Shown one piece after another: positions 1 to 63,591 of a stretch of 64,000 nucleotides of DNA. Location: the NCBI GenBank assembly GCA_964482735.1, contig CAYZYV010000003.1:63097-127096 (forward strand), read 5' to 3'. Numbering within the stretch: position 1 is the stretch's first letter; every line of letters begins with the position of its first letter. Origin of the DNA: an uncultured Candidatus Saccharibacteria bacterium (GTDB lineage: Bacteria > Patescibacteriota > Minisyncoccia > Phycocordibacterales > UBA9973). A model generated the notes under the pieces. It worked only from the letters and a program-made list of their open reading frames with translations. It was not told the DNA's origin and did no database searches. The position numbers were made by a program, and so were the translations under genes.

Positions 1-1676
1 CAGAAGTTCACAAAGAAGGAGGCAAATACATTCAAGAATATTCACAAGGTAAGAAAAAATCTCCAGTTAAAAAAGTTGGTACAACAAAAGAACATGGTAC
101 TATCATTTTATTTAGACCAGACGAGGAAATTTTTAAAGAAGTTAAATTTAATATAGATACAGTAATAAATCACTTAAGACAGCAAGCATATTTGGTTAAA
201 GGATTGAGAATAGATATTATAGATGCTCGAGAATGGGATCCTATAACTGGTGGCAAAGAGAAAAAAGATTTAAATGATACTTTTTGGTTTAAGGATTTAG
301 AGCTAGAAGTTCCTTCCACATCTTTTTATTTTGAAGGTGGGCTAATTTCTCTTGTAAGATTTTACAATAAACTCGAAAAGCCTATTCATCCAAGTATCTT
401 TTATGTAGAAAAAGAATTAGATAACGTAGGGGTAGAAGTGGCTTTACAGTATGTTGATGATGTTAATTTTGATATCATTCCTTTTGCTAATAATGTTTAT
501 AACCCAGAAGGCGGTACTCATGTAACCGGATTTAAAACGGCACTAACTAGAGTTTTAAATAACTATGGTAAGAAAAATAATTTGATAAAAGAAGGCGATG
601 GGGGGTTTACAGGAGAAGATGTCTTAGAGGGTCTTACTGCTGTAATATCAGTTAAGTTAAGAGAAATTCAATTTGAAGGACAGACAAAAGCCAAGCTTGG
701 TTCCACAGAAGCTCAGGGTGCCGTTGCCACAGTATTTGGAGATGCTCTTGCTACATTTCTAGAAGAGAATCCAGATGAAGCTAAATCTATCATTAATAAA
801 TCATTGCTTGCTCTTAGAGCTAGAAAAGCAGCTAAGGCGGCGAAGGATTCAGTTCTTCGAAAAGGTGCACTAGAGGGGATGACCTTGCCAGGTAAGCTAG
901 CAGACTGTCAGGTAAAAGATGCGGAAAATGCAGAATTGTTTATTGTGGAGGGGGATTCAGCTGGAGGTACAGCTAAAATGGGAAGAGATAGGAAAACTCA
1001 GGCGATACTACCGCTTAGGGGAAAAATTTTGAATGTTGAAAGAGCTAGGCTGGATAGGATGCTCGGAAGTGAGCAAATTAAAAATCTAGTTATCGCTATG
1101 GGTACATCTATAGGAGAAACTTTTGATATTACTAAAATGCGATATCATAAAATAATTATTGCAACAGATGCCGATGTGGATGGAGCTCACATTTCAACCC
1201 TTATTCTAACTTTGATGTATCGTTACTTTAGACCAGTGTTGGATGCTGGATATGTTTATATCGCACAACCACCTCTATTTAAGATCAAAAAAGGTAAAGA
1301 AGTATTTTATGCATATTCAGACGAAGAAAGAGATAGGATCTTGGGTAAAGATGCTCCAAAATTAGAAGAATTATTACAGGAAAGTGAGACGGGTGCAGAT
1401 GAGAACGAAGAGAGCGAGAATGAACAAAATGAAACGAAAGAAGGAGACAAGAAACAATCAAAAATCCACGTTCAAAGATATAAAGGTCTCGGAGAAATGA
1501 ACGCTGAAGAATTGTGGGAGACAACAATGGATCCAAACAATCGTGTCTTAAAACAAGTTTCAATTAAAGACATCGAAATTGCAAACCAAGTATTTGATAC
1601 CTTAATGGGTTCAGAAGTTGCCCCAAGAAAGGCCTTTATTCAGTCTAATGCCAAAATGGCAAACCTCGACATATAA
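1..1676 (+). CDS. gyrB: DNA gyrase subunit B, C-terminal ~555 aa (5' end upstream of window)
   Basis: Open frame continuous from base 3 with no stops. TOPRIM motifs EGDSAGG and ATDADVDGAHI are present, with the GyrB tail ...FIQSNAKMANLDI. An acidic low-complexity insert (ENEESENEQNETKE) lies near the C-terminus. Confidence 0.9.
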   Translation, partial: EVHKEGGKYIQEYSQGKKKSPVKKVGTTKEHGTIILFRPDEEIFKEVKFNIDTVINHLRQQAYLVKGLRIDIIDAREWDPITGGKEKKDLNDTFWFKDLELEVPSTSFYFEGGLISLVRFYNKLEKPIHPSIFYVEKELDNVGVEVALQYVDDVNFDIIPFANNVYNPEGGTHVTGFKTALTRVLNNYGKKNNLIKEGDGGFTGEDVLEGLTAVISVKLREIQFEGQTKAKLGSTEAQGAVATVFGDALATFLEENPDEAKSIINKSLLALRARKAAKAAKDSVLRKGALEGMTLPGKLADCQVKDAENAELFIVEGDSAGGTAKMGRDRKTQAILPLRGKILNVERARLDRMLGSEQIKNLVIAMGTSIGETFDITKMRYHKIIIATDADVDGAHISTLILTLMYRYFRPVLDAGYVYIAQPPLFKIKKGKEVFYAYSDEERDRILGKDAPKLEELLQESETGADENEESENEQNETKEGDKKQSKIHVQRYKGLGEMNAEELWETTMDPNNRVLKQVSIKDIEIANQVFDTLMGSEVAPRKAFIQSNAKMANLDI

Positions 1677-27939: not shown

Positions 27940-28163
27940 CGCCTTAGAGACTCGAACGTGAGGAAGCCTCTTCGCTTTAGTTATGCTTTGACATAACCTA
28001 TATGTTTAATAATGAACTGCTTAACAGGCTTAAACAGAGAAGCCCTTCACTTTAGTTATGCTTTGACATAACCTATATACTTGTTATTGAGCCGCTTCAG
28101 AGACTCGAAGGTGAGGAAGCACTTCGCTTTAGTTATGCTTTGACATAACCTATATTTTTTTAC
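27940..28163 (-). repeat. Three tandem ~75-bp direct repeats. Each is a ~37-nt copy of the tRNA-Thr 3' half (T-arm plus acceptor 3' strand) joined to a conserved hairpin gttatg-ctttga-cataac
   Basis: The units begin at 27940, 28013 and 28088. The motif cgctttagttatgctttgacataacctata recurs with period 75/77/72 and continues in register into the intact tRNA. Confidence 0.8.
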
Positions 28164-28238
28164 TGAGCCGCTTCTCAGACTCGAACTGAGGACCTTCGCT
28201 TTACAAAAGCGTTGCTCTACCAACTGAGCTAAAGCGGC
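28164..28238 (-). tRNA. tRNA-Thr (anticodon UGU)
   Basis: Cloverleaf folded by hand: acceptor gccgctt/aagcggc, D-arm agctcagttggtagagc, anticodon loop tt-tgt-aa, T-arm ctcag-ttcgagt-ctgag, discriminator U then CA. Confidence 0.85.
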
Positions 28239-45024: not shown

Positions 45025-46305
45025 ATGAAAAAGTCAGATTTAAAAAAGTTTAAATTACCTCAAAAACCAGGTGTTTACTTTTTTACAAAAAGTAACTCTT
45101 CTATGAGTAAATCTTCTATGAAAAAGGAAGATGTTTTGTATATTGGCAAGGCGACTAATTTGTCTGATAGAGTCAAAAGTTATTTCTCAAGTGATTTAAT
45201 CAATACTAGAGGCCCTATGATATTAGACATGGTCACACAGTCCAAGTTCATTAAATATCAAGAAACAGATAGTGTTTTAGAGGCTTTGATATTGGAGGCT
45301 AGCTTAATCAAAAAATATCAACCAAAATACAATACAAAAGAGAAAGACAATAAAAGCTTTAACTATGTTTGTATTACCAATGAAGACATACCAAAAGTTT
45401 TGATTAAAAGGGGAAGAAATTTAAAGATGATCCAAGAAAAAGAGTTGCCTGTTTGTAATAATTTTCCTCACTCTATATACCAAAAAACTTTTGGTCCGTT
45501 TCCGAGTGGAACGCAACTAAAAGAGGCGATGAAAATTATTCGTCGTATTTTTCCATATGTAGATGAACAGTCTATTAAGAAAAATAATTCAGAGTTTTAT
45601 TTACAATTAGGTTTATCTCCTAATATAAAAAACAGAGAAATTGATAAGATTAGTTATCACAAGAATATAAAAAATTTAATCCTGTTTTTTCAAGGTAAGA
45701 AAAAAGATATTATAAAAAATCTTAAAAAAGAGATGATGGTTTTTGCAAAAAATAGAGAATTTGAAAGGGCTAATGAAATAAAAAAGAAGATTTTTGCACT
45801 TAACCACATAAACGATATTGCTTTAATTAAAAGTGATACAGCTGACGAGCATTCATCAAATTACAGGATAGAAGCTTATGATGTGGCACACATGTCCGGT
45901 AAAAATATGGTCGGGGTTATGGTTGTGATAGAGAACCAAGAATTGAACAAAAAAGAATATAAGAAATTTATAATCAAAACAGTAGATACTGTAAATGATC
46001 CTAAGGCTCTAGCTGAAATTTTGGGCAGAAGATTTTCTCATAATGAATGGAGGAAACCAGACTTAATCGTTGTAGACGGTGGAGTGATTCAAGTGAATGC
46101 CGCAAAAAATGTCTTATCAAAATTAAAAATTAAAATACCAGTTGTTTCAGTATTAAAAGATGAAAGACACAAAGCAAAGGCTATTTTAGGAGATAATAAA
46201 ATTATTGAAAAAAATAAGAAAAATATCCTTTTAGCCAATGCTGAATCTCATCGTTTTGCTATAGCTTTTCATAAGAAAAAAAGGGAACAGAAATTCTTGA
46301 TCTAA
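45025..46305 (+). CDS. uvrC: Excinuclease ABC subunit C, short form (426 aa) lacking the C-terminal (HhH)2 domain
   Basis: GIY-YIG (PGVYFF...YIGKATNLSDRVKSYF), UVR-like helix (REFERANEIKKKIFAL), RNase H-like endonuclease region (EAYDVAHMSGK). The protein ends before any HhH motif. Confidence 0.8.
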   Translation: MKKSDLKKFKLPQKPGVYFFTKSNSSMSKSSMKKEDVLYIGKATNLSDRVKSYFSSDLINTRGPMILDMVTQSKFIKYQETDSVLEALILEASLIKKYQPKYNTKEKDNKSFNYVCITNEDIPKVLIKRGRNLKMIQEKELPVCNNFPHSIYQKTFGPFPSGTQLKEAMKIIRRIFPYVDEQSIKKNNSEFYLQLGLSPNIKNREIDKISYHKNIKNLILFFQGKKKDIIKNLKKEMMVFAKNREFERANEIKKKIFALNHINDIALIKSDTADEHSSNYRIEAYDVAHMSGKNMVGVMVVIENQELNKKEYKKFIIKTVDTVNDPKALAEILGRRFSHNEWRKPDLIVVDGGVIQVNAAKNVLSKLKIKIPVVSVLKDERHKAKAILGDNKIIEKNKKNILLANAESHRFAIAFHKKKREQKFLI

Positions 46306-47366: not shown

Positions 47367-47993
47367 TTACTTTTTTCTAAACAAATCAACCACATAGAAC
47401 ATATATTTTGTTCCATTTTTTGAAAGGTTAAATAGAATTGCAACAGTGTAGAAGAATATAGCTATCTTTGTGCTATAGAAAGAAACAGCAATTGCTATAA
47501 GCGCAGAAATAACAGGTACGAGTATGTGAGCCATTGCATGTTCGTTTTCTATTTTTGTGTAGGGCATATTTTCTATTGTATTTGATTTGATCGCATATCT
47601 TCTCATTTTATACAAAGATAAACCTATCATTATAATGTTTAAGGCGAAAAATATCACTGCTGTTTTTGAGTACATGTATTTACCGAGAAGGTGAGAAGAA
47701 AACGGAACTAGCGCAACAAAAAAGAAAAAGAATCCGTTAATGTTTGAGAATGGTATATCTATATTTTTTGCAAAAACTGAGGCGGTTAAGTGGTGGGATC
47801 TCCAGTATGTGAATAATAAAGAAAAACTCAATATATAACTTATAAGAATAGGGTACATCCCCATTAAATAATTTATTAGAGTGTGCTCGTTTATAATGCC
47901 GACATATTCAGGAACTCTAATTTCAAAAATTAAAACGGTCATCACGATTGCGAAGATGCCGTCTGAAAGCTGGTCTAATCTTTGTTGTTTCAT
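47367..47993 (-). CDS. TMEM175/DUF1211-family membrane protein (putative K+ channel)
   Basis: RLDQLSDGIFAIVMTVLIFEI matches the DUF1211 signature (RxxxFSDGVFAIAxTLLVLE). About six TM segments. Start set at MKQQRL (the ORF extends to 48083). Confidence 0.6.
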   Translation of the reverse strand: MKQQRLDQLSDGIFAIVMTVLIFEIRVPEYVGIINEHTLINYLMGMYPILISYILSFSLLFTYWRSHHLTASVFAKNIDIPFSNINGFFFFFVALVPFSSHLLGKYMYSKTAVIFFALNIIMIGLSLYKMRRYAIKSNTIENMPYTKIENEHAMAHILVPVISALIAIAVSFYSTKIAIFFYTVAILFNLSKNGTKYMFYVVDLFRKK

Positions 47994-48134
47994 TTCTATA
48001 TTATAACAATTAAACCACAGAATATCCAAACTTGACAATGTACTAAAACTTGTGTTTTGGTGTTTTTTATGATATAATTGCATAGAAATAGTTAATTCAA
48101 ATTAAATAAACAAACAAAACAAACAAAAACAGAA

Positions 48135-48911
48135 ATGGAAAACAAAGAGAAAGATCTAGAAAAGATCATGGCTGAGAATCAGCAATTAAGAGTGGAAAAT
48201 GTACAGAGTGCCTTTATGCTAAAAAAATTTAAGTCTCTAGCTAGAGTGTTGGGGCACGATCTTAGATCTCCTATCGCGAGTTCTATTACCTGCCTTGAAC
48301 TTTGCCTAGAAATGTTGCGTGAAGAAAATCTAGCAAATAAGGACGTGATGATGTTCTTAACCATGGCAGCAGAGCAAAATCGTAATCTGCTAGGTTTAGT
48401 TGATAACCTTTTAGTTTGGTCAAGAATGCAGATAGACGGAGTTAAGATAAACCAGGAAAAAATAAACTTGAAAAGCACCTTGGCGGATACAATTTCACCA
48501 TATATGTTTTCTTGTTTGTCAAAAGGTATAAATGTCAGATTTAACGTGGATGATGTTTCTATCATAACAGATAAAAGTATTTTTCAGTTTATCGTTAGAA
48601 ATATTTTCACTAACGCGATGAAATTTACCCCTAAAAATGGCGATATTACTATCGTTGCCAAGAAATACAATGATTGTATTAGCGTGGTAATTAAGGACAA
48701 TGGTATAGGTATGTCGCCGGAAAAAATTAGGAAAATTTTTGAAAGCGTCGGGGAAAGCTCTTCTGGCACAGAAGGAGAAAAAGGAACAGGTCTAGGGTTA
48801 TCTATGTGTCAAGAACTAGCCGAAAAATCAGGCTTTTTGATTTCTGTAGAAAGTGAAGGTGAGGGAAAAGGATCGTCTTTTACGATTTCTCTTCCTAAGC
48901 ATAAAAAATAA
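48135..48911 (+). CDS. Cytoplasmic histidine kinase (HisKA + HATPase_c) with no TM/sensor domain and no adjacent response regulator
   Basis: H-box LGHDLRSPIASS; N, G1 and G2 boxes (NAMKFTPKNG, DNGIGM, GTGLGLSM). Confidence 0.7.
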   Translation: MENKEKDLEKIMAENQQLRVENVQSAFMLKKFKSLARVLGHDLRSPIASSITCLELCLEMLREENLANKDVMMFLTMAAEQNRNLLGLVDNLLVWSRMQIDGVKINQEKINLKSTLADTISPYMFSCLSKGINVRFNVDDVSIITDKSIFQFIVRNIFTNAMKFTPKNGDITIVAKKYNDCISVVIKDNGIGMSPEKIRKIFESVGESSSGTEGEKGTGLGLSMCQELAEKSGFLISVESEGEGKGSSFTISLPKHKK

Positions 48912-48931
48912 ACATAATAAAAAATAGAAAG

Positions 48932-48961
48932 AGCCGGCAATTAGCCGGCTTTATTATTTTT
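48932..48961 (+). terminator. Intrinsic terminator
   Basis: agccggcaattagccggct followed by ttattattttt. Confidence 0.65.
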
Positions 48962-48984
48962 GTAGTCAGGGATATTTTGCTCGT

Positions 48985-49125
48985 CGCCACTCGCAAAATT
49001 CCACGACCCTGGCTCGTGATTTTGCTTGCTAGCAAAATTATCACTCCGCCTTCCACAGCTAAAAAACAGCATGCAGATGCTGTTTTTCTTAACGCTTGTG
49101 GACCCTACAGGAGTCTCTCCTTCGA
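48985..49125 (-). repeat. Partial direct copy (unit 1) of the tRNA-Ala 3' end, its trailer, a terminator hairpin and ~100 nt of flank
   Basis: tttcttaacgcttgtggaccctacagga is identical at 49095-49122 and 49353-49380. The flanks ccttccacagctaaaa / ctttccacaagctaaaa are similar. The hairpin sequence differs but stays self-complementary. Confidence 0.75.
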
Positions 49126-49366
49126 CTAAAACCTTTTCGTCAAAAAGTTTTGTCTAGGCACCAGCTCGTCTGTTTTTTGAGACAGTTATGGAATGCTTTG
49201 CATGCTAAAACCATGTGTGTCACAAGTCACTAAATATTTTGCTCCAGGTATTCGCAAAATATGTAAGTGCTCGCGACCCCAGCTCGGCAATTTTTCTGCT
49301 GAAAAATTATGCCTGTGCTTTCCACAAGCTAAAAGCCTCCAGCAGTGGAGGCTTTCTTAACGCTTG

Positions 49367-49439
49367 TGGACCCTACAGGACTCGAACCTGCCACCCCCTC
49401 ATTGCAAATGAGGTGCTCTACCAGATGAGCTAAGGGCCC
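49367..49439 (-). tRNA. tRNA-Ala (anticodon UGC) with G3:U70
   Basis: gggccct/agggtcc acceptor with the G3-U70 identity pair, anticodon stem cctca/tgagg, loop tt-tgc-aa, T-loop ttcgagt. Confidence 0.85.
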
Positions 49440-49610
49440 ATATTCTTTTTTAATCTACTTTGCCTTTAGTTTATACTGTTGCTTCCATGAAGCGCTACAG
49501 ATGAGCTAAGGGCCTATAAAACATAATCTTGAAACACTATTATATTAACTTATTTTAAAAAAATTGCAAGTAAAATTAACTATTTTCCTTTAAAATGATA
49601 CAATGTTGCT

Positions 49611-50978
49611 ATGCCATTAAACAAAGGAAATAAAATACAAACCGTTAAGTATTCTCCTCCTCCTCCAAATCTTCCAATGCTTGGGAAGGTAGATCCTAGC
49701 CAAGCTGTTTTTATTGGAAGAACAAATTATGTAGCAGCCTTGGAAGAAAAGAGGTTTGTTTTTGGTATTAATCAAAACGATAGAAGACGTCATGTTTATA
49801 TTGTAGGTAAATCTGGGGTAGGTAAATCAAAATTAGAAGAAGTAATGATTCGTCAGGATATTGCTTATGGCAGAGGTGTATGTGTTATCGATCCGTACGG
49901 AGAATTAGTAGAAGAGATATTAAATTTTATTCCTAAAAATAGAGTAAATGATGTTTGTATCTTTAATCCTGAAGATGTTAATTTTCCTGCATCCTTTAAT
50001 CCATTTTCAAGGGTAGAACCGACATTCAGACACCAATTTACTCAAAGTATCGTAGAAATTTTACAGAAACAATTTGGAAATGATTGGAGTCCTAGAATAG
50101 AGCATGTGATTCGTTTTTCAGTATTAGCTTTGCTTGATTGTGAAAATTCAAACATGCGAGGGATGATTCGTATTTTGATTGATAAAAAATATCGAGAAAA
50201 GGTTATAGATAATATAAAAGACGACATGGTTCGTCATTTCTGGAAAGAAGAGTTTGAAGAGTGGTCTAAGAAGTTTGATTCTGAAGTAATAATTCCTATC
50301 GTGAACAAGTTGTGGCAATTTCTTTCTAACCCGATGCTTACCAACATATTTGGTCAAAAGGAAAACAAAATAGATTTTGAAAAAATAATGAATAATAAAA
50401 AAATTATTCTTGTTAACTTAGCTAAGGATAAAATCGGAGATGAAAATGCTTCATTCTTGGGTGCCTTGTTTATGACAAAAATTAGACAAGCAGGTATGTC
50501 TCGAGCAAAGTTGAATCCTTCAGAAAAGAATGATTTTTATCTTTATATTGATGAATTTAATAATATAATAACTGATGGTTTTGAAAACATTTTATCTGAG
50601 TCTAGAAAATATGGAATTAATTTAACTATTGCCCATCAATATATCGGTCAATTGTCTCAAAAAATAGAACAAGCAGTTTTAGGTAATATAGGAACTATAA
50701 TTTTGTTTAGGGTTGGGGGAGACGATGCTACCAAGTTGCGATCTGAATTCGCTCCTATTTTTGATGTTAAAGATATGATTAATTTAGGAACAGGAGAGTT
50801 TTACATTAAGATGATAATAAATGGTGAAAGTTATGACCCATTTTCATCAGAAACCTTAGAAGTTTTACCGACACCACACACATCTTTTAGAGAAGAAGTT
50901 TTAGGTTCTTCTAGAAGATTCTATGCTACCACAGAAGAAAACGCTTCTAAAATTATGGCTGAAGATGAATCTTCTTAA
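49611..50978 (+). CDS. Soluble FtsK/HerA-superfamily P-loop ATPase resembling T4SS coupling-protein (VirD4/TraG/TrwB) DNA-binding ATPase domains; paralogue 1
   Basis: Walker A VYIVGKSGVGKS, Walker B LYIDEFNNI, arginine finger and sensor SESRKYGINLTIAHQY. No TM segments. Confidence 0.55.
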   Translation: MPLNKGNKIQTVKYSPPPPNLPMLGKVDPSQAVFIGRTNYVAALEEKRFVFGINQNDRRRHVYIVGKSGVGKSKLEEVMIRQDIAYGRGVCVIDPYGELVEEILNFIPKNRVNDVCIFNPEDVNFPASFNPFSRVEPTFRHQFTQSIVEILQKQFGNDWSPRIEHVIRFSVLALLDCENSNMRGMIRILIDKKYREKVIDNIKDDMVRHFWKEEFEEWSKKFDSEVIIPIVNKLWQFLSNPMLTNIFGQKENKIDFEKIMNNKKIILVNLAKDKIGDENASFLGALFMTKIRQAGMSRAKLNPSEKNDFYLYIDEFNNIITDGFENILSESRKYGINLTIAHQYIGQLSQKIEQAVLGNIGTIILFRVGGDDATKLRSEFAPIFDVKDMINLGTGEFYIKMIINGESYDPFSSETLEVLPTPHTSFREEVLGSSRRFYATTEENASKIMAEDESS

Positions 50979-51026
50979 AATAAAGCTTTTTAGTTTGTTT
51001 TAAATAAGGTATAATAAAAGTAATTT

Positions 51027-53111
51027 ATGGATAACGAAATTCCTAATAATAAAGATATCACTTATTTTGCGAAGACTAATTTTCGTAATACAAATACTGT
51101 TTTTGGAATAAAAAGAAAAGATCGTCGTCAGCACATGTATGTCCTCGGTAAATCTGGTACCGGTAAATCTGTTTTGTTGCATAATTTAATAACTCAAAAC
51201 ATTAAAAATGGAGAGGGCGTTTGTGTAATAGATCCTCACGGAGAACTTGCTGAAGAAATACTAGAATTGATACCAGAAAATCGCATAAAAGATGTTATTT
51301 ATTTTAACCCGGCAGATCCTGATTTTCATATAGGTTTTAACGTTCTACAGATTGATGACCCTAAGCTTAAGCACTTAGTTGCTTCTGGTATTATGGGTAT
51401 TTTTACTAAAATTTGGGCAAATGCTTGGAGCTCTCGTATGGAGTACATTTTAAACAATGCTATTTTGGCCCTCTTAGATACGCCAGGAACTACACTTTTG
51501 GGGATACCTCGTCTTTTAGTCGATAAAGAGTATCGTCAAATGATTATAGGCAATCTAAAAGATCCAATTGTTAAATCTTTTTGGTTGCACGAATACGAGG
51601 AATGGAGAGACCAATTTAGAAATGAAGCGATTGCCCCTATTCAAAATAAAGTTGGACAATTTTTGTCTACTTCTATCATTAGAAATGTGGTTGGTCAATC
51701 AAAATCAACAATTGATATCTTCAAAATAATGAACGAAGGTAAAATCTTTATTGTTAATGTTTCAAAAGGAAGAATAGGGGAAGATAACTCAGCTTTGCTT
51801 GGAGGTATGATTATTACCAAGCTTCAATTGGCAGCTATGGAGAGAGTTCGTATTCCTGAAAACGAGAGAAGAGATTTCTATCTTTATGTTGATGAATTTC
51901 AGAACTTTGCTACTGAATCTTTTGCCAACATTCTTTCTGAAGCGAGAAAGTATCGTTTAAATTTAATTATTGCTCACCAATATATAGCTCAAATAGCAAA
52001 CTCTGAAGGTTCCAAAGTTTCTGATGCAGTTTTTGGTAACGTTGGAACAATGATTATTTTTAGAGTAGGAGCAGAAGATGCCCAGTTTTTGGAAAAAGAA
52101 TTTGAACCAGAATTTACAGCTCAAGACTTGGTTAGCTTACCAAATTACAATATCTATTTGAAATTAATGGTAGATGGTGTAACTAGTCGTCCTTTTTCAG
52201 CAATAACTTTACCACCAATGGTTTCTGTTGATCCTGACAATGATACTAAAGAAAGAATCATAGAGTCCTCAAGGGTCTTGTATGCACGATCACGAACCGA
52301 AGTAGAATCAGAGATAACCAAATGGAGTACCACTCTTCAGACAAACGAAGGTGAAGCTAAATATAAAGTAGAGTGTACAAACTGTAAAAAGCAAACTACT
52401 GTTCCTTTTGAACCAAAGGAAGGAAAACCCGTTTACTGCAAGGAGTGTTTAATAAAAATAAAAAGCGGGGAGTTAAAACCAGAAAAAGGATTTTTTGTAC
52501 CAAAGACCAACAATCAAGAAAATAAAGAAGCTGTAGCTTCTCTCGCTTCTTTAGGTATAGAATTCAAATCAGATATTAATCATAATAACAGAGATAATTT
52601 TTCTAGAAGACAAGAACAAAAAACAAACCCAGATCACAATCAACCAAAAAATAGTCATTCTTTTAATCCAAAAGAAAATCCAAGAAATAATAATGATTTT
52701 GAAAGAAGAAAAAGTTCTGGGCCATCACCACTTCTTCGTGGTTTGTTGGAAAAAATAAAATCAGGACAAGTTTCAGAGATAAAAGAAGAAAAAATAGATC
52801 TAGTAGAAGAGAAAGTAAAAACACCTGAACCTGTTTCTTTAGCTACTCTTAAATCAGATAATCCTAGCGATAAAAACACAATGATTTCAACTAAAGAAAT
52901 TTCAGATGCTCATTTATCGACCTTGAAAGACGCTTTAAGTAAAATCACAGACAAGCAAAACTCATTTGATAACTCAAAAAAAGAGCCAATTCAAAATAAT
53001 ACTGAAGTAAAGGCCGAAGATAATCAAAACGACACCTCTGCCCCTTCGTGGCAAAACAAAAAAACTGTCAAAGAAGTCCCCGAAGAAGTATTGAGAAAAG
53101 TTCTAGAATAA
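51027..53111 (+). CDS. Paralogue 2 of the same ATPase family, with a C-terminal CxxC...CxxC zinc ribbon and a ~230-aa low-complexity (N/K/E-rich) tail
   Basis: MYVLGKSGTGKS, LYVDEFQNF, SEARKYRLNLIIAHQY; ECTNCKKQ...CKEC. Confidence 0.55.
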   Translation: MDNEIPNNKDITYFAKTNFRNTNTVFGIKRKDRRQHMYVLGKSGTGKSVLLHNLITQNIKNGEGVCVIDPHGELAEEILELIPENRIKDVIYFNPADPDFHIGFNVLQIDDPKLKHLVASGIMGIFTKIWANAWSSRMEYILNNAILALLDTPGTTLLGIPRLLVDKEYRQMIIGNLKDPIVKSFWLHEYEEWRDQFRNEAIAPIQNKVGQFLSTSIIRNVVGQSKSTIDIFKIMNEGKIFIVNVSKGRIGEDNSALLGGMIITKLQLAAMERVRIPENERRDFYLYVDEFQNFATESFANILSEARKYRLNLIIAHQYIAQIANSEGSKVSDAVFGNVGTMIIFRVGAEDAQFLEKEFEPEFTAQDLVSLPNYNIYLKLMVDGVTSRPFSAITLPPMVSVDPDNDTKERIIESSRVLYARSRTEVESEITKWSTTLQTNEGEAKYKVECTNCKKQTTVPFEPKEGKPVYCKECLIKIKSGELKPEKGFFVPKTNNQENKEAVASLASLGIEFKSDINHNNRDNFSRRQEQKTNPDHNQPKNSHSFNPKENPRNNNDFERRKSSGPSPLLRGLLEKIKSGQVSEIKEEKIDLVEEKVKTPEPVSLATLKSDNPSDKNTMISTKEISDAHLSTLKDALSKITDKQNSFDNSKKEPIQNNTEVKAEDNQNDTSAPSWQNKKTVKEVPEEVLRKVLE

Positions 53112-55970: not shown

Positions 55971-55981
55971 AGCTATTTTAC

Positions 55982-55998
55982 CTGCGGGCGATGGAGGA
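55982..55998 (-). repeat. 17-bp direct repeat of the tRNA-Trp 3' end (attR-like)
   Basis: ctgcgggcgatggagga is identical at 55982-55998 and 56768-56784. Confidence 0.8.
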
Positions 55999-56246
55999 CC
56001 GTGATTACACTTATCGCCTATTACATAGGCAGGTACTTTTCCACCTCTCTTCACTCGTACGGAAAAGTCTTTCGATTCCTCCACGCACATGAAGCAATTC
56101 ATGTGCTATCGCCCAATATTAAAAACAGCTTACGCTGTTTTTAATCTGCGGAGACACTCGTGTTAGAACCTTTCACTGACAAGCCCTGTAACGTTATTTC
56201 TAATAATTTTATTATATCAAATTGACGTACCTTGTGCGATCTTATT

Positions 56247-56735
56247 TTATTCAATAAAATTTAATATTTTTTCTGGAGACGAAACATTATTATCTACAAA
56301 ATCGTTAATTTTTTGCCAATCCTTAAACAAAAATTTGTTAGGATTTTGAGTTTCGATTTTTAGTGGAATTTCAATATAAGAATCTGCTTGTATTTCTCTA
56401 GGGACTATATAGTTACCTTTTTCTATATCCATATCTTTAGTATTTTCTAAAATTGAAGCATCATAATTTTTCAAATCAGCTAATGGTATTCTAATTGTAA
56501 TTATTGAACCATTTGTTGATCTTGTTTTAATGTAATTCTTTAAATCTTGTATATTATCAGTAAACCAATTTCCTATAATTTCTTTTTTTGAGACTACATT
56601 TTCACGTTTTTCATCATATTCAGTATTCGGGGTATCATAACGATATAAAGAAGTATACTCATTATTATGATAGAGTTGTTTTAATTTTTCTTTTCTTTCA
56701 AATTTATTATTTAACTGTAGGTTTTCTAATGACAT
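56247..56735 (-). CDS. Hypothetical protein (162 aa), the only ORF between tRNA-Trp and its downstream direct repeat
   Basis: No recognisable motifs; not hydrophobic. Confidence 0.4.
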   Translation of the reverse strand: MSLENLQLNNKFERKEKLKQLYHNNEYTSLYRYDTPNTEYDEKRENVVSKKEIIGNWFTDNIQDLKNYIKTRSTNGSIITIRIPLADLKNYDASILENTKDMDIEKGNYIVPREIQADSYIEIPLKIETQNPNKFLFKDWQKINDFVDNNVSSPEKILNFIE

Positions 56736-56768: not shown

Positions 56769-56841
56769 CTGCGGGCGATGGAGGAATCGAACCCCCGCCA
56801 AAAGTTTTGGAGACTTTTGTTCTACCACTAAACTAATCGCC
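56769..56841 (-). tRNA. tRNA-Trp (anticodon CCA)
   Basis: Acceptor gggcgat/atcgccc, anticodon stem aaagt/acttt, loop ct-cca-aa, T-loop ttcgatt, discriminator G then CA. Confidence 0.85.
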
Positions 56842-56867
56842 CTTGAATTGCAGTATACTATAAAAAT

Positions 56868-63042: not shown

Positions 63043-63591
63043 TTATTTTTGTTTACTATCTTTAGTTTTTTTGAGATGATTTAAGTGCTGTTGTTTTAAA
63101 TCGATTACTTCTTCTATTAGTTTGCCGAGGGTGTCTTCTATTCTAGCTAGCATTAGGTCATCTTTTTTCTCATCCTCATCTTCTTCTTGGATGTCTTCAA
63201 CATCCTCCTGGATATCATCAACGTCTTTTTGAATATCATCAACATCTTTTTGAATCTCATCGACATCACCCTGAATCTCATCAACGTCTTTTTGAATCTC
63301 ATCAACGTCCTCTTGAATTTCTCCAACATCTTTTGCAACCAAATGAAGTTTTCTTGCCTGACGATTAACACTCATTTGTATAAAAATAGATAGGTAAATG
63401 GCCTCGAGGGAAACTATAGTGGTAAGTACCAAAAGAATATCATCGAGGTCTATCCCGTAAAAATACAAAGCAAAAGCAAATATAAAAAGTGCTGTATGTA
63501 CTAAAAGCGAGTTGGTAGATCCAACCCATCTTGTTGCCTTCGTTGATATTTTTTCTATGGTGTCCCCAGATTTTCTTCTTAATTCCTCCAT
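63043..63591 (-). CDS. DUF1003-like two-TM membrane protein with a C-terminal acidic heptad-repeat region (DVDEIQK x7)
   Basis: LVHTALFIFAFALYFYGIDLDDILLVLTTIVSLEAIYLSIFIQMSVNRQARK (DUF1003-like), then 7 x DVDEIQK-type heptads. Confidence 0.5.
   Translation of the reverse strand: MEELRRKSGDTIEKISTKATRWVGSTNSLLVHTALFIFAFALYFYGIDLDDILLVLTTIVSLEAIYLSIFIQMSVNRQARKLHLVAKDVGEIQEDVDEIQKDVDEIQGDVDEIQKDVDDIQKDVDDIQEDVEDIQEEDEDEKKDDLMLARIEDTLGKLIEEVIDLKQQHLNHLKKTKDSKQK
63190..63336. repeat. Seven tandem 21-bp repeats (coding heptads of the 63043..63591 gene)
   Basis: gatatcatcaacgtctttttg / aatatcatcaacatctttttg / aatctcatcgacatcaccctg ... with period 21. Confidence 0.85.

Follow-up and report, generated by a model that had tools for sequence, protein, structure and literature searches.

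The tRNA-Ala gene and its partial copies

We analyzed the gene for tRNA-Ala(TGC) and the partial copies of it that lie on both of its sides in a 64-kb stretch of contig CAYZYV010000003.1 from an uncultured member of the Patescibacteria (from here on, the whole 64-kb stretch is referred to as the window), and we describe a conserved, structured, non-coding cassette, which we call X, to which the flank of similar sequence beside the gene belongs. Coordinates are those of the window, sequences around tRNA-Ala are read on the minus strand, and the features are collected in Table 1. CCA is absent from the sequence of the gene, and G3:U70 is present. The 3' end of the gene and its trailer make up a 28-mer, TCCTGTAGGGTCCACAAGCGTTAAGAAA, which occurs exactly twice in 64 kb (core copies A and B in Table 1) and had no match in 100 shuffles; the tRNA part of core copy A comprises the T-stem 3' strand, the acceptor 3' strand, and the discriminator (positions 60-73). 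A preliminary description of this DNA had correctly reported this exact 28-nucleotide (nt) repeat on the same strand but gave the distance as 258 bp, whereas the copies are 268 nt apart, start to start. Beyond the repeat, 48972-49126 and 49234-49394 share 70% identity over 165 aligned columns (blastn E = 1e-16), and the similarity 3' of each core copy spans ~130 nt. The duplication of ~260 bp that had been proposed is real as far as the duplicated flank is concerned but is recognizable over only ~160 nt of the 268-nt period. The two hairpins, hp1 and hp2, are indeed swapped and self-complementary, as had been claimed; hp1 resembles the terminator of tRNA-Ala, and its stem is maintained via compensatory changes in hp2 and in three related loci (L008, L016, and L022; loci and contigs other than the window carry L numbers).

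Table 1. Features around tRNA-Ala and the X unit at tRNA-Trp. IR, inverted repeat (complement of the tRNA 3' end); DR, direct repeat (copy of the tRNA 3' end); X-A, X-B, and X-Trp are units of cassette X.
Feature	Position	Strand	Basis
tRNA-Ala(TGC), intact	49366..49439	-	ARAGORN; Rfam RF00005, 63.9 bits
Core copy A: 3'-most 14 nt of tRNA-Ala plus 14-nt trailer CAAGCGTTAAGAAA	49353..49380	-	exact 28-mer
Hairpin hp1, GCCTCCA-CTGC-TGGAGGC then TTTT; opens X-A	49335..49352	-	sequence
X-A, complete type-1 cassette (IR, folded body, DR)	49094..49329	-	fold and alignment
IR of X-A, GCTTGTGGAAAGCACAGG	49312..49329	-	inverted repeats I2 and I3, 18 nt, 78% complementary
Core copy B: DR (3' terminal segment of X-A) plus second 14-nt trailer	49085..49112	-	pairs with IR
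Hairpin hp2, ACAGCAT-CTGC-ATGCTGT then TTTTTT; opens X-B	49066..49083	-	sequence and alignment
X-B, diverged type-1 cassette, 3'-truncated	48962..49062	-	alignment; fold z = -3.2
~40 nt between 5' pseudo-copy and tRNA-Ala	49440..49480	-	partly alignable to long L016 leader
5' pseudo-copy of tRNA-Ala, positions 1-25 (AGGCCCTTAGCTCATCTG-TAGCGC), plus small hairpin	49481..49515	-	repeat search
Promoter-like sequence of tRNA-Ala unit, CTTGCAA, 16-19 nt, TAATAT/TATAAT	49540..49571	-	by eye
X-Trp, type-2 cassette; IR and DR match tRNA-Trp (56771-56842), not tRNA-Ala	55980..56118	-	covariance model R1

On the 5' side, GGCCCTTAGCTCATCTG is present within tRNA-Ala (49422-49438) and again at 49498-49514, with no match in 100 shuffles, and the 5' pseudo-fragment lies 76 nt upstream of the gene's own copy. 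This fragment had been described as a 20-nt copy; it is present but longer, covering tRNA positions 1-25 with one deletion (49492-49515), and a small hairpin (49481-49493) occupies the place of the anticodon arm. The pseudo-copy is found at the native promoter distance, i.e. where tRNA-Ala begins in relatives, with GTTTTAT followed by AGGCCC upstream of it in the window versus TTGTTTTTAT followed by GGGCC in L022 and L023. The promoter-like sequence in Table 1 was not among the calls of a promoter scan of the region; a CTTGCAA(A/T)-rich motif also precedes tRNA-Ala in L008, L012, L016, L022, L023, L047, and L048.

Three independent Logan assemblies (SRR10083292, SRR10083294, and SRR10083296) agree base for base with the window wherever they overlap it, indicating that the locus is not an assembly artifact of one data set. 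The Logan contigs L001, L005-L007, and L002-L004 end at window positions 49286, 49366, 49411, and ~49019-49186, i.e. within or at the edges of X units and tRNA-Ala, and these breakpoints fit variants that co-exist within samples.

Structure and distribution of cassette X

In an X unit, a trailer and a terminator-like hairpin precede the complement of the 3' end of the tRNA (IR), which is followed by a folded body and a copy of that 3' end (DR); the inserts are ~130-270 nt long. The IR and DR are predicted to pair with one another and so to close the fold; in occupied loci the IR sometimes also covers the complement of the trailer or T-loop. The IR of X-A is complementary to the 3' end and trailer of tRNA-Ala and hence to the DR (78% to both cores), forms the closing stem in the minimum-energy fold of 49085-49335, and is conserved in L016 and L022. 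The RNA fold of 49085-49335 has -82.3 kcal/mol (z = -5.3), and the opposite strand is less stable (-71 kcal/mol). Individual units gave z-scores from -4.2 to -7.4. X-B, which abuts the terminator of a histidine-kinase gene, has a degenerate IR (49042-49059) and no DR. In Ala-matched units, position 3:70 is A-U or unpaired, and a T-loop is missing. When the window and L008, L012, L016, L022, L023, and L047 were searched with Rfam 15 at curated and permissive thresholds, only tRNA scored above threshold, and the sub-threshold hits came from terminator hairpins; ARAGORN reported only the four tRNAs of the window and no X.

We retrieved the tRNA-Ala locus of genomes that encode a VirD4-like protein with 66-88% identity to the one in the window. 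In two of them (L008 and L048) the site is empty, and tRNA-Ala is followed by a short trailer, one terminator hairpin, and the next gene. In occupied relatives, a non-coding block of 130-300 nt has a direct copy of the tRNA 3' end as its last segment, which is exact in L012 (15 nt, spacing 194) and L047 (16 nt, spacing 208) and degenerate in L016, L022, and L023. The order tRNA, hairpin, IR, body, and DR is seen at tRNA-Ala in L012, L016, L022, L023, and L047 and at tRNA-Trp in the window, L050/L052, and L053; an X unit is present at 6 of 8 tRNA-Ala loci and in all 3 tRNA-Trp haplotypes. Repeats of 15-29 nt occur in L012, L047, L050, L053, and at tRNA-Trp of the window. Relatives carry zero, one, or two units, and the distribution does not follow host phylogeny. 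The preliminary description had reasoned that the same structure with conserved spacing in relatives would suggest a structural or regulatory duplication rather than the scar of a mobile element; the spacings of the DR across Ala and Trp loci are 132, 164, 194, 208, 268, and 787 nt, so that neither spacing nor content is conserved, and strains of one species differ. We also note that L008 5030-5139 (tRNA, 14-nt trailer, and hairpin) is 99% identical to window 49330-49439 over 110 nt; the flanking proteins are 66% and 34% identical, and the leader 5' of tRNA-Ala is not alignable.

Further, a type-2 covariance model, R1, found one single unit in the window, X-Trp (140 bits, E = 1e-40; fold z = -5.2). 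Its DR, TCCTCCATCGCCCGCAG, is identical to the 3' end of tRNA-Trp at 17 of 17 positions, and its IR (GGGCGAT, a hairpin, and GTGGAGGAATCGA; 13 nt) is 100% complementary to that end. For comparison, we used contigs that encode an identical ribosomal protein L33, the gene for which flanks X-Trp. In L053, a type-2 unit like X-Trp begins 29 nt (a hairpin) after tRNA-Trp, and L050 and L052 carry a type-1-like, Trp-matched unit in that same place, with a DR of 29 nt (93% identity) and an IR of 15 nt (93% complementarity). Strains with identical L33 thus differ at one site, with type 2 in the window and L053 versus type 1 in L050; one locus swaps scaffold between very close strains. An open reading frame (ORF) of 162 amino acids without a Pfam match (56247-56735, minus strand) lies between tRNA-Trp and the block of hairpin plus X-Trp in the window; its borders are the 3' end of tRNA-Trp and a decayed copy of that end (~56130-56160), and it is absent in L053. 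The trailer of tRNA-Trp in the window, GTCGTGATAGCACAAG, resembles the type-1 3' motif ACTCGTGATACACAAG.

The units fall into two scaffolds. Type 1 is represented by X-A, X-B, L016, and L022 and has the conserved stretch ATAATTTTTCAGCAGAAAAATT.CCGAGC.GGGGTCGCGAG, a variable hairpin, and CT.GTGA. Type 2 is represented by L012, L023, L047, and the distal part of L016, where it lies behind a type-1 unit. In this scaffold, an acceptor-like helix (P1) and, inserted at the 65/66 junction, a 9-bp hairpin (P2) are followed by a T-stem-like helix, three more hairpins, and the conserved joining strands AAGAC, GAAAAGUACC, and GAGAAGUGUACUCAUG. The type-2 consensus fold of four sequences has 39 pairs, with 96.7% of cells paired and compensatory changes in 17 of the 39, compared with 1-5 compensatory pairs and 38-47% paired in controls in which the 3' partners were moved by 1-3 columns. 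Covariation is weaker in type 1, in which 6-7 of 22 pairs are compensatory. We conclude that the secondary structure of X is conserved and backed by compensatory changes, less so in type 1. Both scaffolds occur with Ala-matched and with Trp-matched ends, and the sister genomes L022 and L023 (82% gene identity) differ in scaffold type. The IR and DR track the cognate tRNA, be it tRNA-Ala of the window, the Ala variant of L023 and L047, or tRNA-Trp: L023 and L047 have a variant tRNA-Ala T-arm, CCGAGTCCGCTAAGGTCCA, and their IR (GGGTGGACCTTAGCG...GTAGCGGACTCGG) and DR follow that variant.

Identities between X units were determined over the 76 best-aligned columns adjoining the hairpin in four sequences. 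X-A is 89% identical to the unit of L016, a distant relative, and 85% to that of L022 but only 61% to X-B, and the units of L016 and L022 share 91% identity. The VirD4-like gene of the same genomes shows 70-76% nucleotide identity, indicating that X is under stronger constraint than that conserved gene or has moved horizontally. By this alignment, X-B appears to be the outgroup to X-A and to the units of other genomes. The core preceding X-B is still identical to the tRNA-Ala copy at 28 of 28 positions, and at 70% per-base identity 28 consecutive matches have a chance of ~5e-5. Tandem duplication followed by decay, which had been put forward as one origin of the locus, does not agree with these values, because uniform decay after a local duplication is contradicted by an identity of 61% between X-A and X-B versus 85-89% elsewhere together with an intact core. 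A crossover within the shared core that puts two diverged alleles in tandem can yield the pattern. Three contigs from other runs (L002-L004) encode the identical histidine kinase and lack X-B; the kinase terminator there runs straight into an X-A-like unit, with window 48966-49185 missing. This indicates that X-B is a within-species polymorphism. A self-blast of the window found type 1 at the tRNA-Ala locus only.

Origin of the cassettes and of the 5' fragment

We regard it as an evenly balanced proposition that the partial tRNA copies are the boundaries of stacked small non-coding cassettes at a tRNA-centered recombination hot spot. The DR-flanked insert beside an intact, reconstituted tRNA (28-nt exact repeat) and the unoccupied site in related genomes (L008 and L048) are both hallmarks of integrase islands, and stacking is indicated by X-B beside X-A, by the tandem units of L016, and by the ORF that precedes X-Trp. 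Integration at this tRNA had also been offered in the preliminary description; the insert boundaries at a tRNA hot spot and the empty sites bear it out in part, whereas neither an integrase nor an ORF between the repeats accompanies them. The closest frame for X is the attachment-site footprint of tRNA-targeting integrative elements. In tycheposon islands, successive integrations leave arrays of partial tRNAs (bioRxiv 10.1101/2020.12.28.424599). X is like such elements in that direct repeats of the 3' part of a tRNA flank the insert, the tRNA stays intact, relatives have empty sites, and later inserts push older ones outward and leave remnants. It is unlike them in that it has no integrase or ORF and is only ~130-270 nt long, is conserved and structured, complements the repeat with its 5' end, and has identity that reaches into the trailer. 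Integration into tRNA genes reportedly falls into sublocation classes (T-loop and anticodon loop; Williams, 2002), and the repeats considered here likewise begin in the T-loop region (Ala and Trp) or the anticodon stem (an array at tRNA-Thr, see below).

Under the cassette reading, units would be gained or exchanged by recombination in the shared core at the tRNA 3' end, with each new unit pushing the older one outward, and X-B would be the older, diverged, truncated unit behind the tRNA-proximal X-A. The enzyme would be a recombinase acting in trans, or else homologous recombination with incoming DNA would proceed via the identical core of 17-29 nt. The helix of IR and DR would imitate the acceptor/T-stem stack of the neighboring tRNA. 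X is probably transcribed on the tRNA strand, as judged from the minus-strand fold energies and from G-U pairs in several helices, and RNase P and RNase Z would be able to excise it from a read-through transcript by virtue of its tRNA-like closing helix, its discriminator, and its trailer.

Several observations weigh against this reading. The DR of type 1 is degenerate in L016 and L022, and the closing helix is thus not always maintained. The DR of X-Trp is perfect although the intervening 3'-end copy has decayed, and this, together with a conservation above that of a coding gene, resembles the outcome of selection on a functional RNA more than it does a scar. No ORF of at least 60 amino acids with a family match lies between the repeats, and a scan of 36 window ORFs, most of them with housekeeping functions, gave no integrase, transposase, or recombinase. 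The X motifs and the core are absent from IMG/VR viral contigs and GenBank phages: a scan of IMG/VR with the 28-mer core gave no match, and blastn against GenBank phages matched only tRNA to tRNA when the Ala region was the query and found no match to X-Trp. X has no known autonomous parent element, and 190-270 bp is a very short insert for an integrase to excise and integrate. One resemblance that favors the cassette reading, between the native trailer of L048, CAAACTATAAAA, and those behind the DR in L012 (CAACTAAAATA) and L047 (CTAACTACAATA), is one of short AT-rich strings. Finally, the sample comprises only ~ten loci of a single clade.

The rival explanations differ in how much of the above they account for. 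X could be a resident small RNA gene with tRNA-like ends for release by RNase P/Z, with X-B a decaying duplicate and no mobility at all, and we judge this unlikely, though more likely than the other two rivals. The strong, covariation-backed structure, a conservation exceeding that of the neighboring coding gene, the more stable fold of the minus strand with its G-U pairs, the presence of X at most tRNA-Ala loci and all tRNA-Trp haplotypes, and the lack of a recombinase among the scanned window ORFs are all in keeping with a resident RNA. It leaves unexplained, however, why tRNA identity reaches 3-14 nt into the trailer, why the scaffold is swapped between strains with identical flanking proteins, why the sister genomes L022 and L023 have differing types, and why an outgroup X-B follows a perfect core; moreover, type-2 units have no recognizable promoter of their own and are preceded by a terminator-like hairpin.

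Duplication in place, by slippage or unequal crossing-over, of a 268-bp segment starting in the tRNA, with neutral distal decay thereafter, would fit the head-to-tail order, in which the first period starts inside tRNA-Ala, and has a counterpart in the true 75-nt tandem array at tRNA-Thr of the window, which begins in the 3' half of that gene. We nonetheless consider it improbable, given that divergence is non-uniform (28/28 in the core versus 61-70% beside it), that X-A is much closer to the units of other genomes than to X-B, and that relatives and tRNA-Trp show the IR/DR architecture with a single unit. Hardly better placed is the scar of a classical prophage or island with its own integrase at the T-loop of tRNA-Ala, of which only the attachment-site arms would be left. 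Such a scar would account for the direct repeats of the tRNA 3' end, the empty sites, and the variable genes 3' of tRNA-Ala (histidine kinase, TMEM175, Nramp, and IS30-like), but there is no integrase remnant and no match in viral collections, an IR complementary to the repeat is not a known feature of attachment-site arms, and the sequence and fold between the repeats are nearly identical in genomes whose proteins are 71-81% identical, such that independent deletions are improbable.

The 5' fragment is best compared with L047, in which an identical 26-nt copy of the tRNA-Ala 5' end (1131-1156) is followed by a hairpin, an 87-amino acid GIY-YIG ORF, and the complete tRNA. The ORF (831-1094, minus strand) encodes a GIY-YIG nuclease and has its stop codon within tRNA-Ala, overlapping the first bases; the duplicate extends with changes to approximately tRNA position 49, with a tight 8-bp hairpin in place of the anticodon arm. 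Free-standing GIY-YIG homing endonucleases occur in tRNA gene regions, e.g. phage T4 SegB. The L047 gene is like these in residing inside the tRNA-Ala locus, directly 5' of the gene, and unlike them in that a 26-nt duplication of the tRNA 5' end flanks the insert, which homing by double-strand-break repair does not make. A tblastn search of the window with the L047 protein found no GIY-YIG gene. By analogy with L047, the ~40 nt between the 5' pseudo-copy and tRNA-Ala are likely a residue of an insert that displaced the original 5' end, and the 5' fragment would be the displaced start of the original gene, left by an L047-like insert that was later reduced. X is present without the 5' fragment in L012, L022, and L023, which makes the two sides look like separate events. 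Alternatively, a single insertion of the tRNA together with X into an older tRNA gene may have occurred, with the 5' fragment and the DR as the halves of the older gene.

X resembles other known systems in part. Cis-mobilizable elements of Streptococcus reach kilobases in length and stem from known conjugative elements, the integrase of which is also known. X shares with them the lack of recombination genes, attachment-site repeats, tandem stacking, and a presumable mobilization in trans, and differs in that no parent element or recombinase is known for it. Modules with tRNA-like processing or recognition include the tRNA-like domain of tmRNA, YrlA (Y-RNA-like), and the mascRNA type of RNase P/Z punctuation. 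The ends of X likewise pair as an acceptor-like stem on a T-stem-like helix, followed by a discriminator and trailer, but X copies the exact sequence and trailer of the adjacent tRNA, has no T-loop or D-loop, has a Watson-Crick 3:70 pair in Ala-matched units, and is not recognized by ARAGORN or Rfam. With miniature inverted-repeat transposable elements (MITEs), X has in common its small size, the lack of an ORF, a strong fold, and terminal inverted complementarity (IR versus DR); unlike theirs, its ends are specific for the neighboring tRNA, its copies stand only at cognate tRNAs, and no short outer target-site duplication is seen. A derivative of a MITE or insertion sequence was therefore rejected, as the ends vary with the neighboring tRNA and a single type-2 copy exists in 64 kb.

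Other candidates were tried and rejected as well. A tmRNA or permuted tmRNA was not found by ARAGORN, and X also exists with Trp-matched ends; an SRP-like GGAA motif in L016 and L022 is absent in the window unit and is not scored by Rfam. The mismatches between copies A and B are not adenine-specific, as a template/variable pair of a diversity-generating retroelement would require. A retroviral-type primer-binding site, in which the IR would pair with the mature CCA end, fits L012 only; elsewhere, the IR has the gene-encoded trailer and not the CCA end as its partner. TIGR arrays consist of 36-nt box C/D units adjoining a Nop-domain protein (PMC12045711), an architecture different from that of X. 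For a bridge RNA, a TnpB/IscB guide RNA, a casposon, or an IS200/IS605 derivative, the matching protein or terminal features are missing; the two guide-like segments of X address identical positions and pair mutually. IMG/VR matches to three X motifs were due to chance, lying inside coding sequence with no tRNA ends nearby. An own sigma-70 promoter was likewise discarded: a -10-like NATAAT follows the type-1 IR with a poor -35, and nothing is conserved there in type-2 units.

We conclude that a recurrent, structured cassette with ends matched to a tRNA exists in Paceibacteria and is apparently undescribed. That X represents an undescribed class of Patescibacteria elements, with two interchangeable scaffolds and tRNA-programmed termini, that spreads or is exchanged between tRNA loci without a protein of its own is a tentative proposal, for which we see a limited chance. 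If such a class exists, X could conceivably be a functional RNA that is punctuated by tRNA ends and carried along when the 3' ends of tRNA genes recombine, or it could be a non-autonomous element, with the tRNA target specified by its own RNA or single-stranded fold. Patescibacteria (the Candidate Phyla Radiation) have tiny genomes with few recognized mobile elements, and their genetic exchange and diversification are poorly understood. Here, tRNA flanks differ between strains with identical neighboring proteins, and the variable part is a protein-free, structured cassette with tRNA-matched ends. If it is a functional RNA, X is a new tRNA-linked RNA family with ends that resemble targets of tRNA-processing enzymes; if it is mobile, it targets tRNA genes as an unusually small element for which no enzyme is known. 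In both cases, the models are concrete enough to be searched for in a genome-wide survey, and for annotators it follows that "tRNA fragments" near tRNA genes of these bacteria can belong to structured elements rather than to decay.

Neighboring genes and other tRNAs of the window

The window has ~33% G+C with no compositional break and encodes UvrA, UvrC, Ddl, NusB, RNase III, TrmD, sigma-70, ProRS, MreB, S2, EF-Ts, Tgt, and MiaA. The VirD4/TraD-like ATPase gene that adjoins tRNA-Ala has >4000 close homologs with source names Paceibacteria, Parcubacteria, or Patescibacteria, indicating that it is a core gene of the clade and not part of a conjugative element. Two such genes lie side by side at 49611-53111 (455 and 694 amino acids, the latter product with a CxxC-x17-CxxC zinc finger), followed by a gene for a lamin-tail-domain protein; the order of this trio is conserved in all relatives examined, with thousands of homologs, which makes it a core system of this clade and not the remnant of a plasmid.

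The gene content 3' of tRNA-Ala, from Ddl to the VirD4-like gene (window 47367-49610), varies among eight loci (the window, L008, L012, L016, L022, L023, L047, and L048) and includes genes for a TMEM175-like channel, a soluble histidine kinase, Nramp, GPDH, and, in L023, an IS30-like transposase. This gene turnover looks like island-type behavior. The soluble histidine kinase has no partner regulator nearby at the tRNA-Ala locus, and a scan of a genome collection with the kinase protein gave only unrelated kinases and no close species representative.

Downstream copies of the 3' end are found at three of the four tRNAs of the window, the exception being tRNA-Leu. The tRNA-Thr gene (28165-28238, minus strand) is followed by a 75-nt tandem array (27948-28203, 3.4 copies with 79% matches), the start of which lies within the tRNA; each array unit combines a decayed 3' half of the tRNA (from the 3' strand of the anticodon stem to the acceptor end) with a trailer and the conserved hairpin GGTTATG-TCAAAG-CATAACT. 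Near tRNA-Trp, L050 has two L33 genes, 98-256 (minus strand) and 571-729 (plus strand), which flank tRNA-Leu, and in L049 an rve-family transposase gene (5-943, minus strand) lies directly 5' of an identical L33 gene. These arrangements are further rearrangements around the tRNA-Trp/L33 cluster.

UvrC (45025-46305) has 426 amino acids and matches the N-terminal GIY-YIG and the RNase H-like parts of the models below their curated cut-offs; UvrC is equally short in relatives (407-430 amino acids). At 63182-63334, a 21-nt (also 42- and 63-nt) tandem repeat of ~7 copies lies in a minus-strand ORF of 182 amino acids, the product of which has weak matches of the coiled-coil type.

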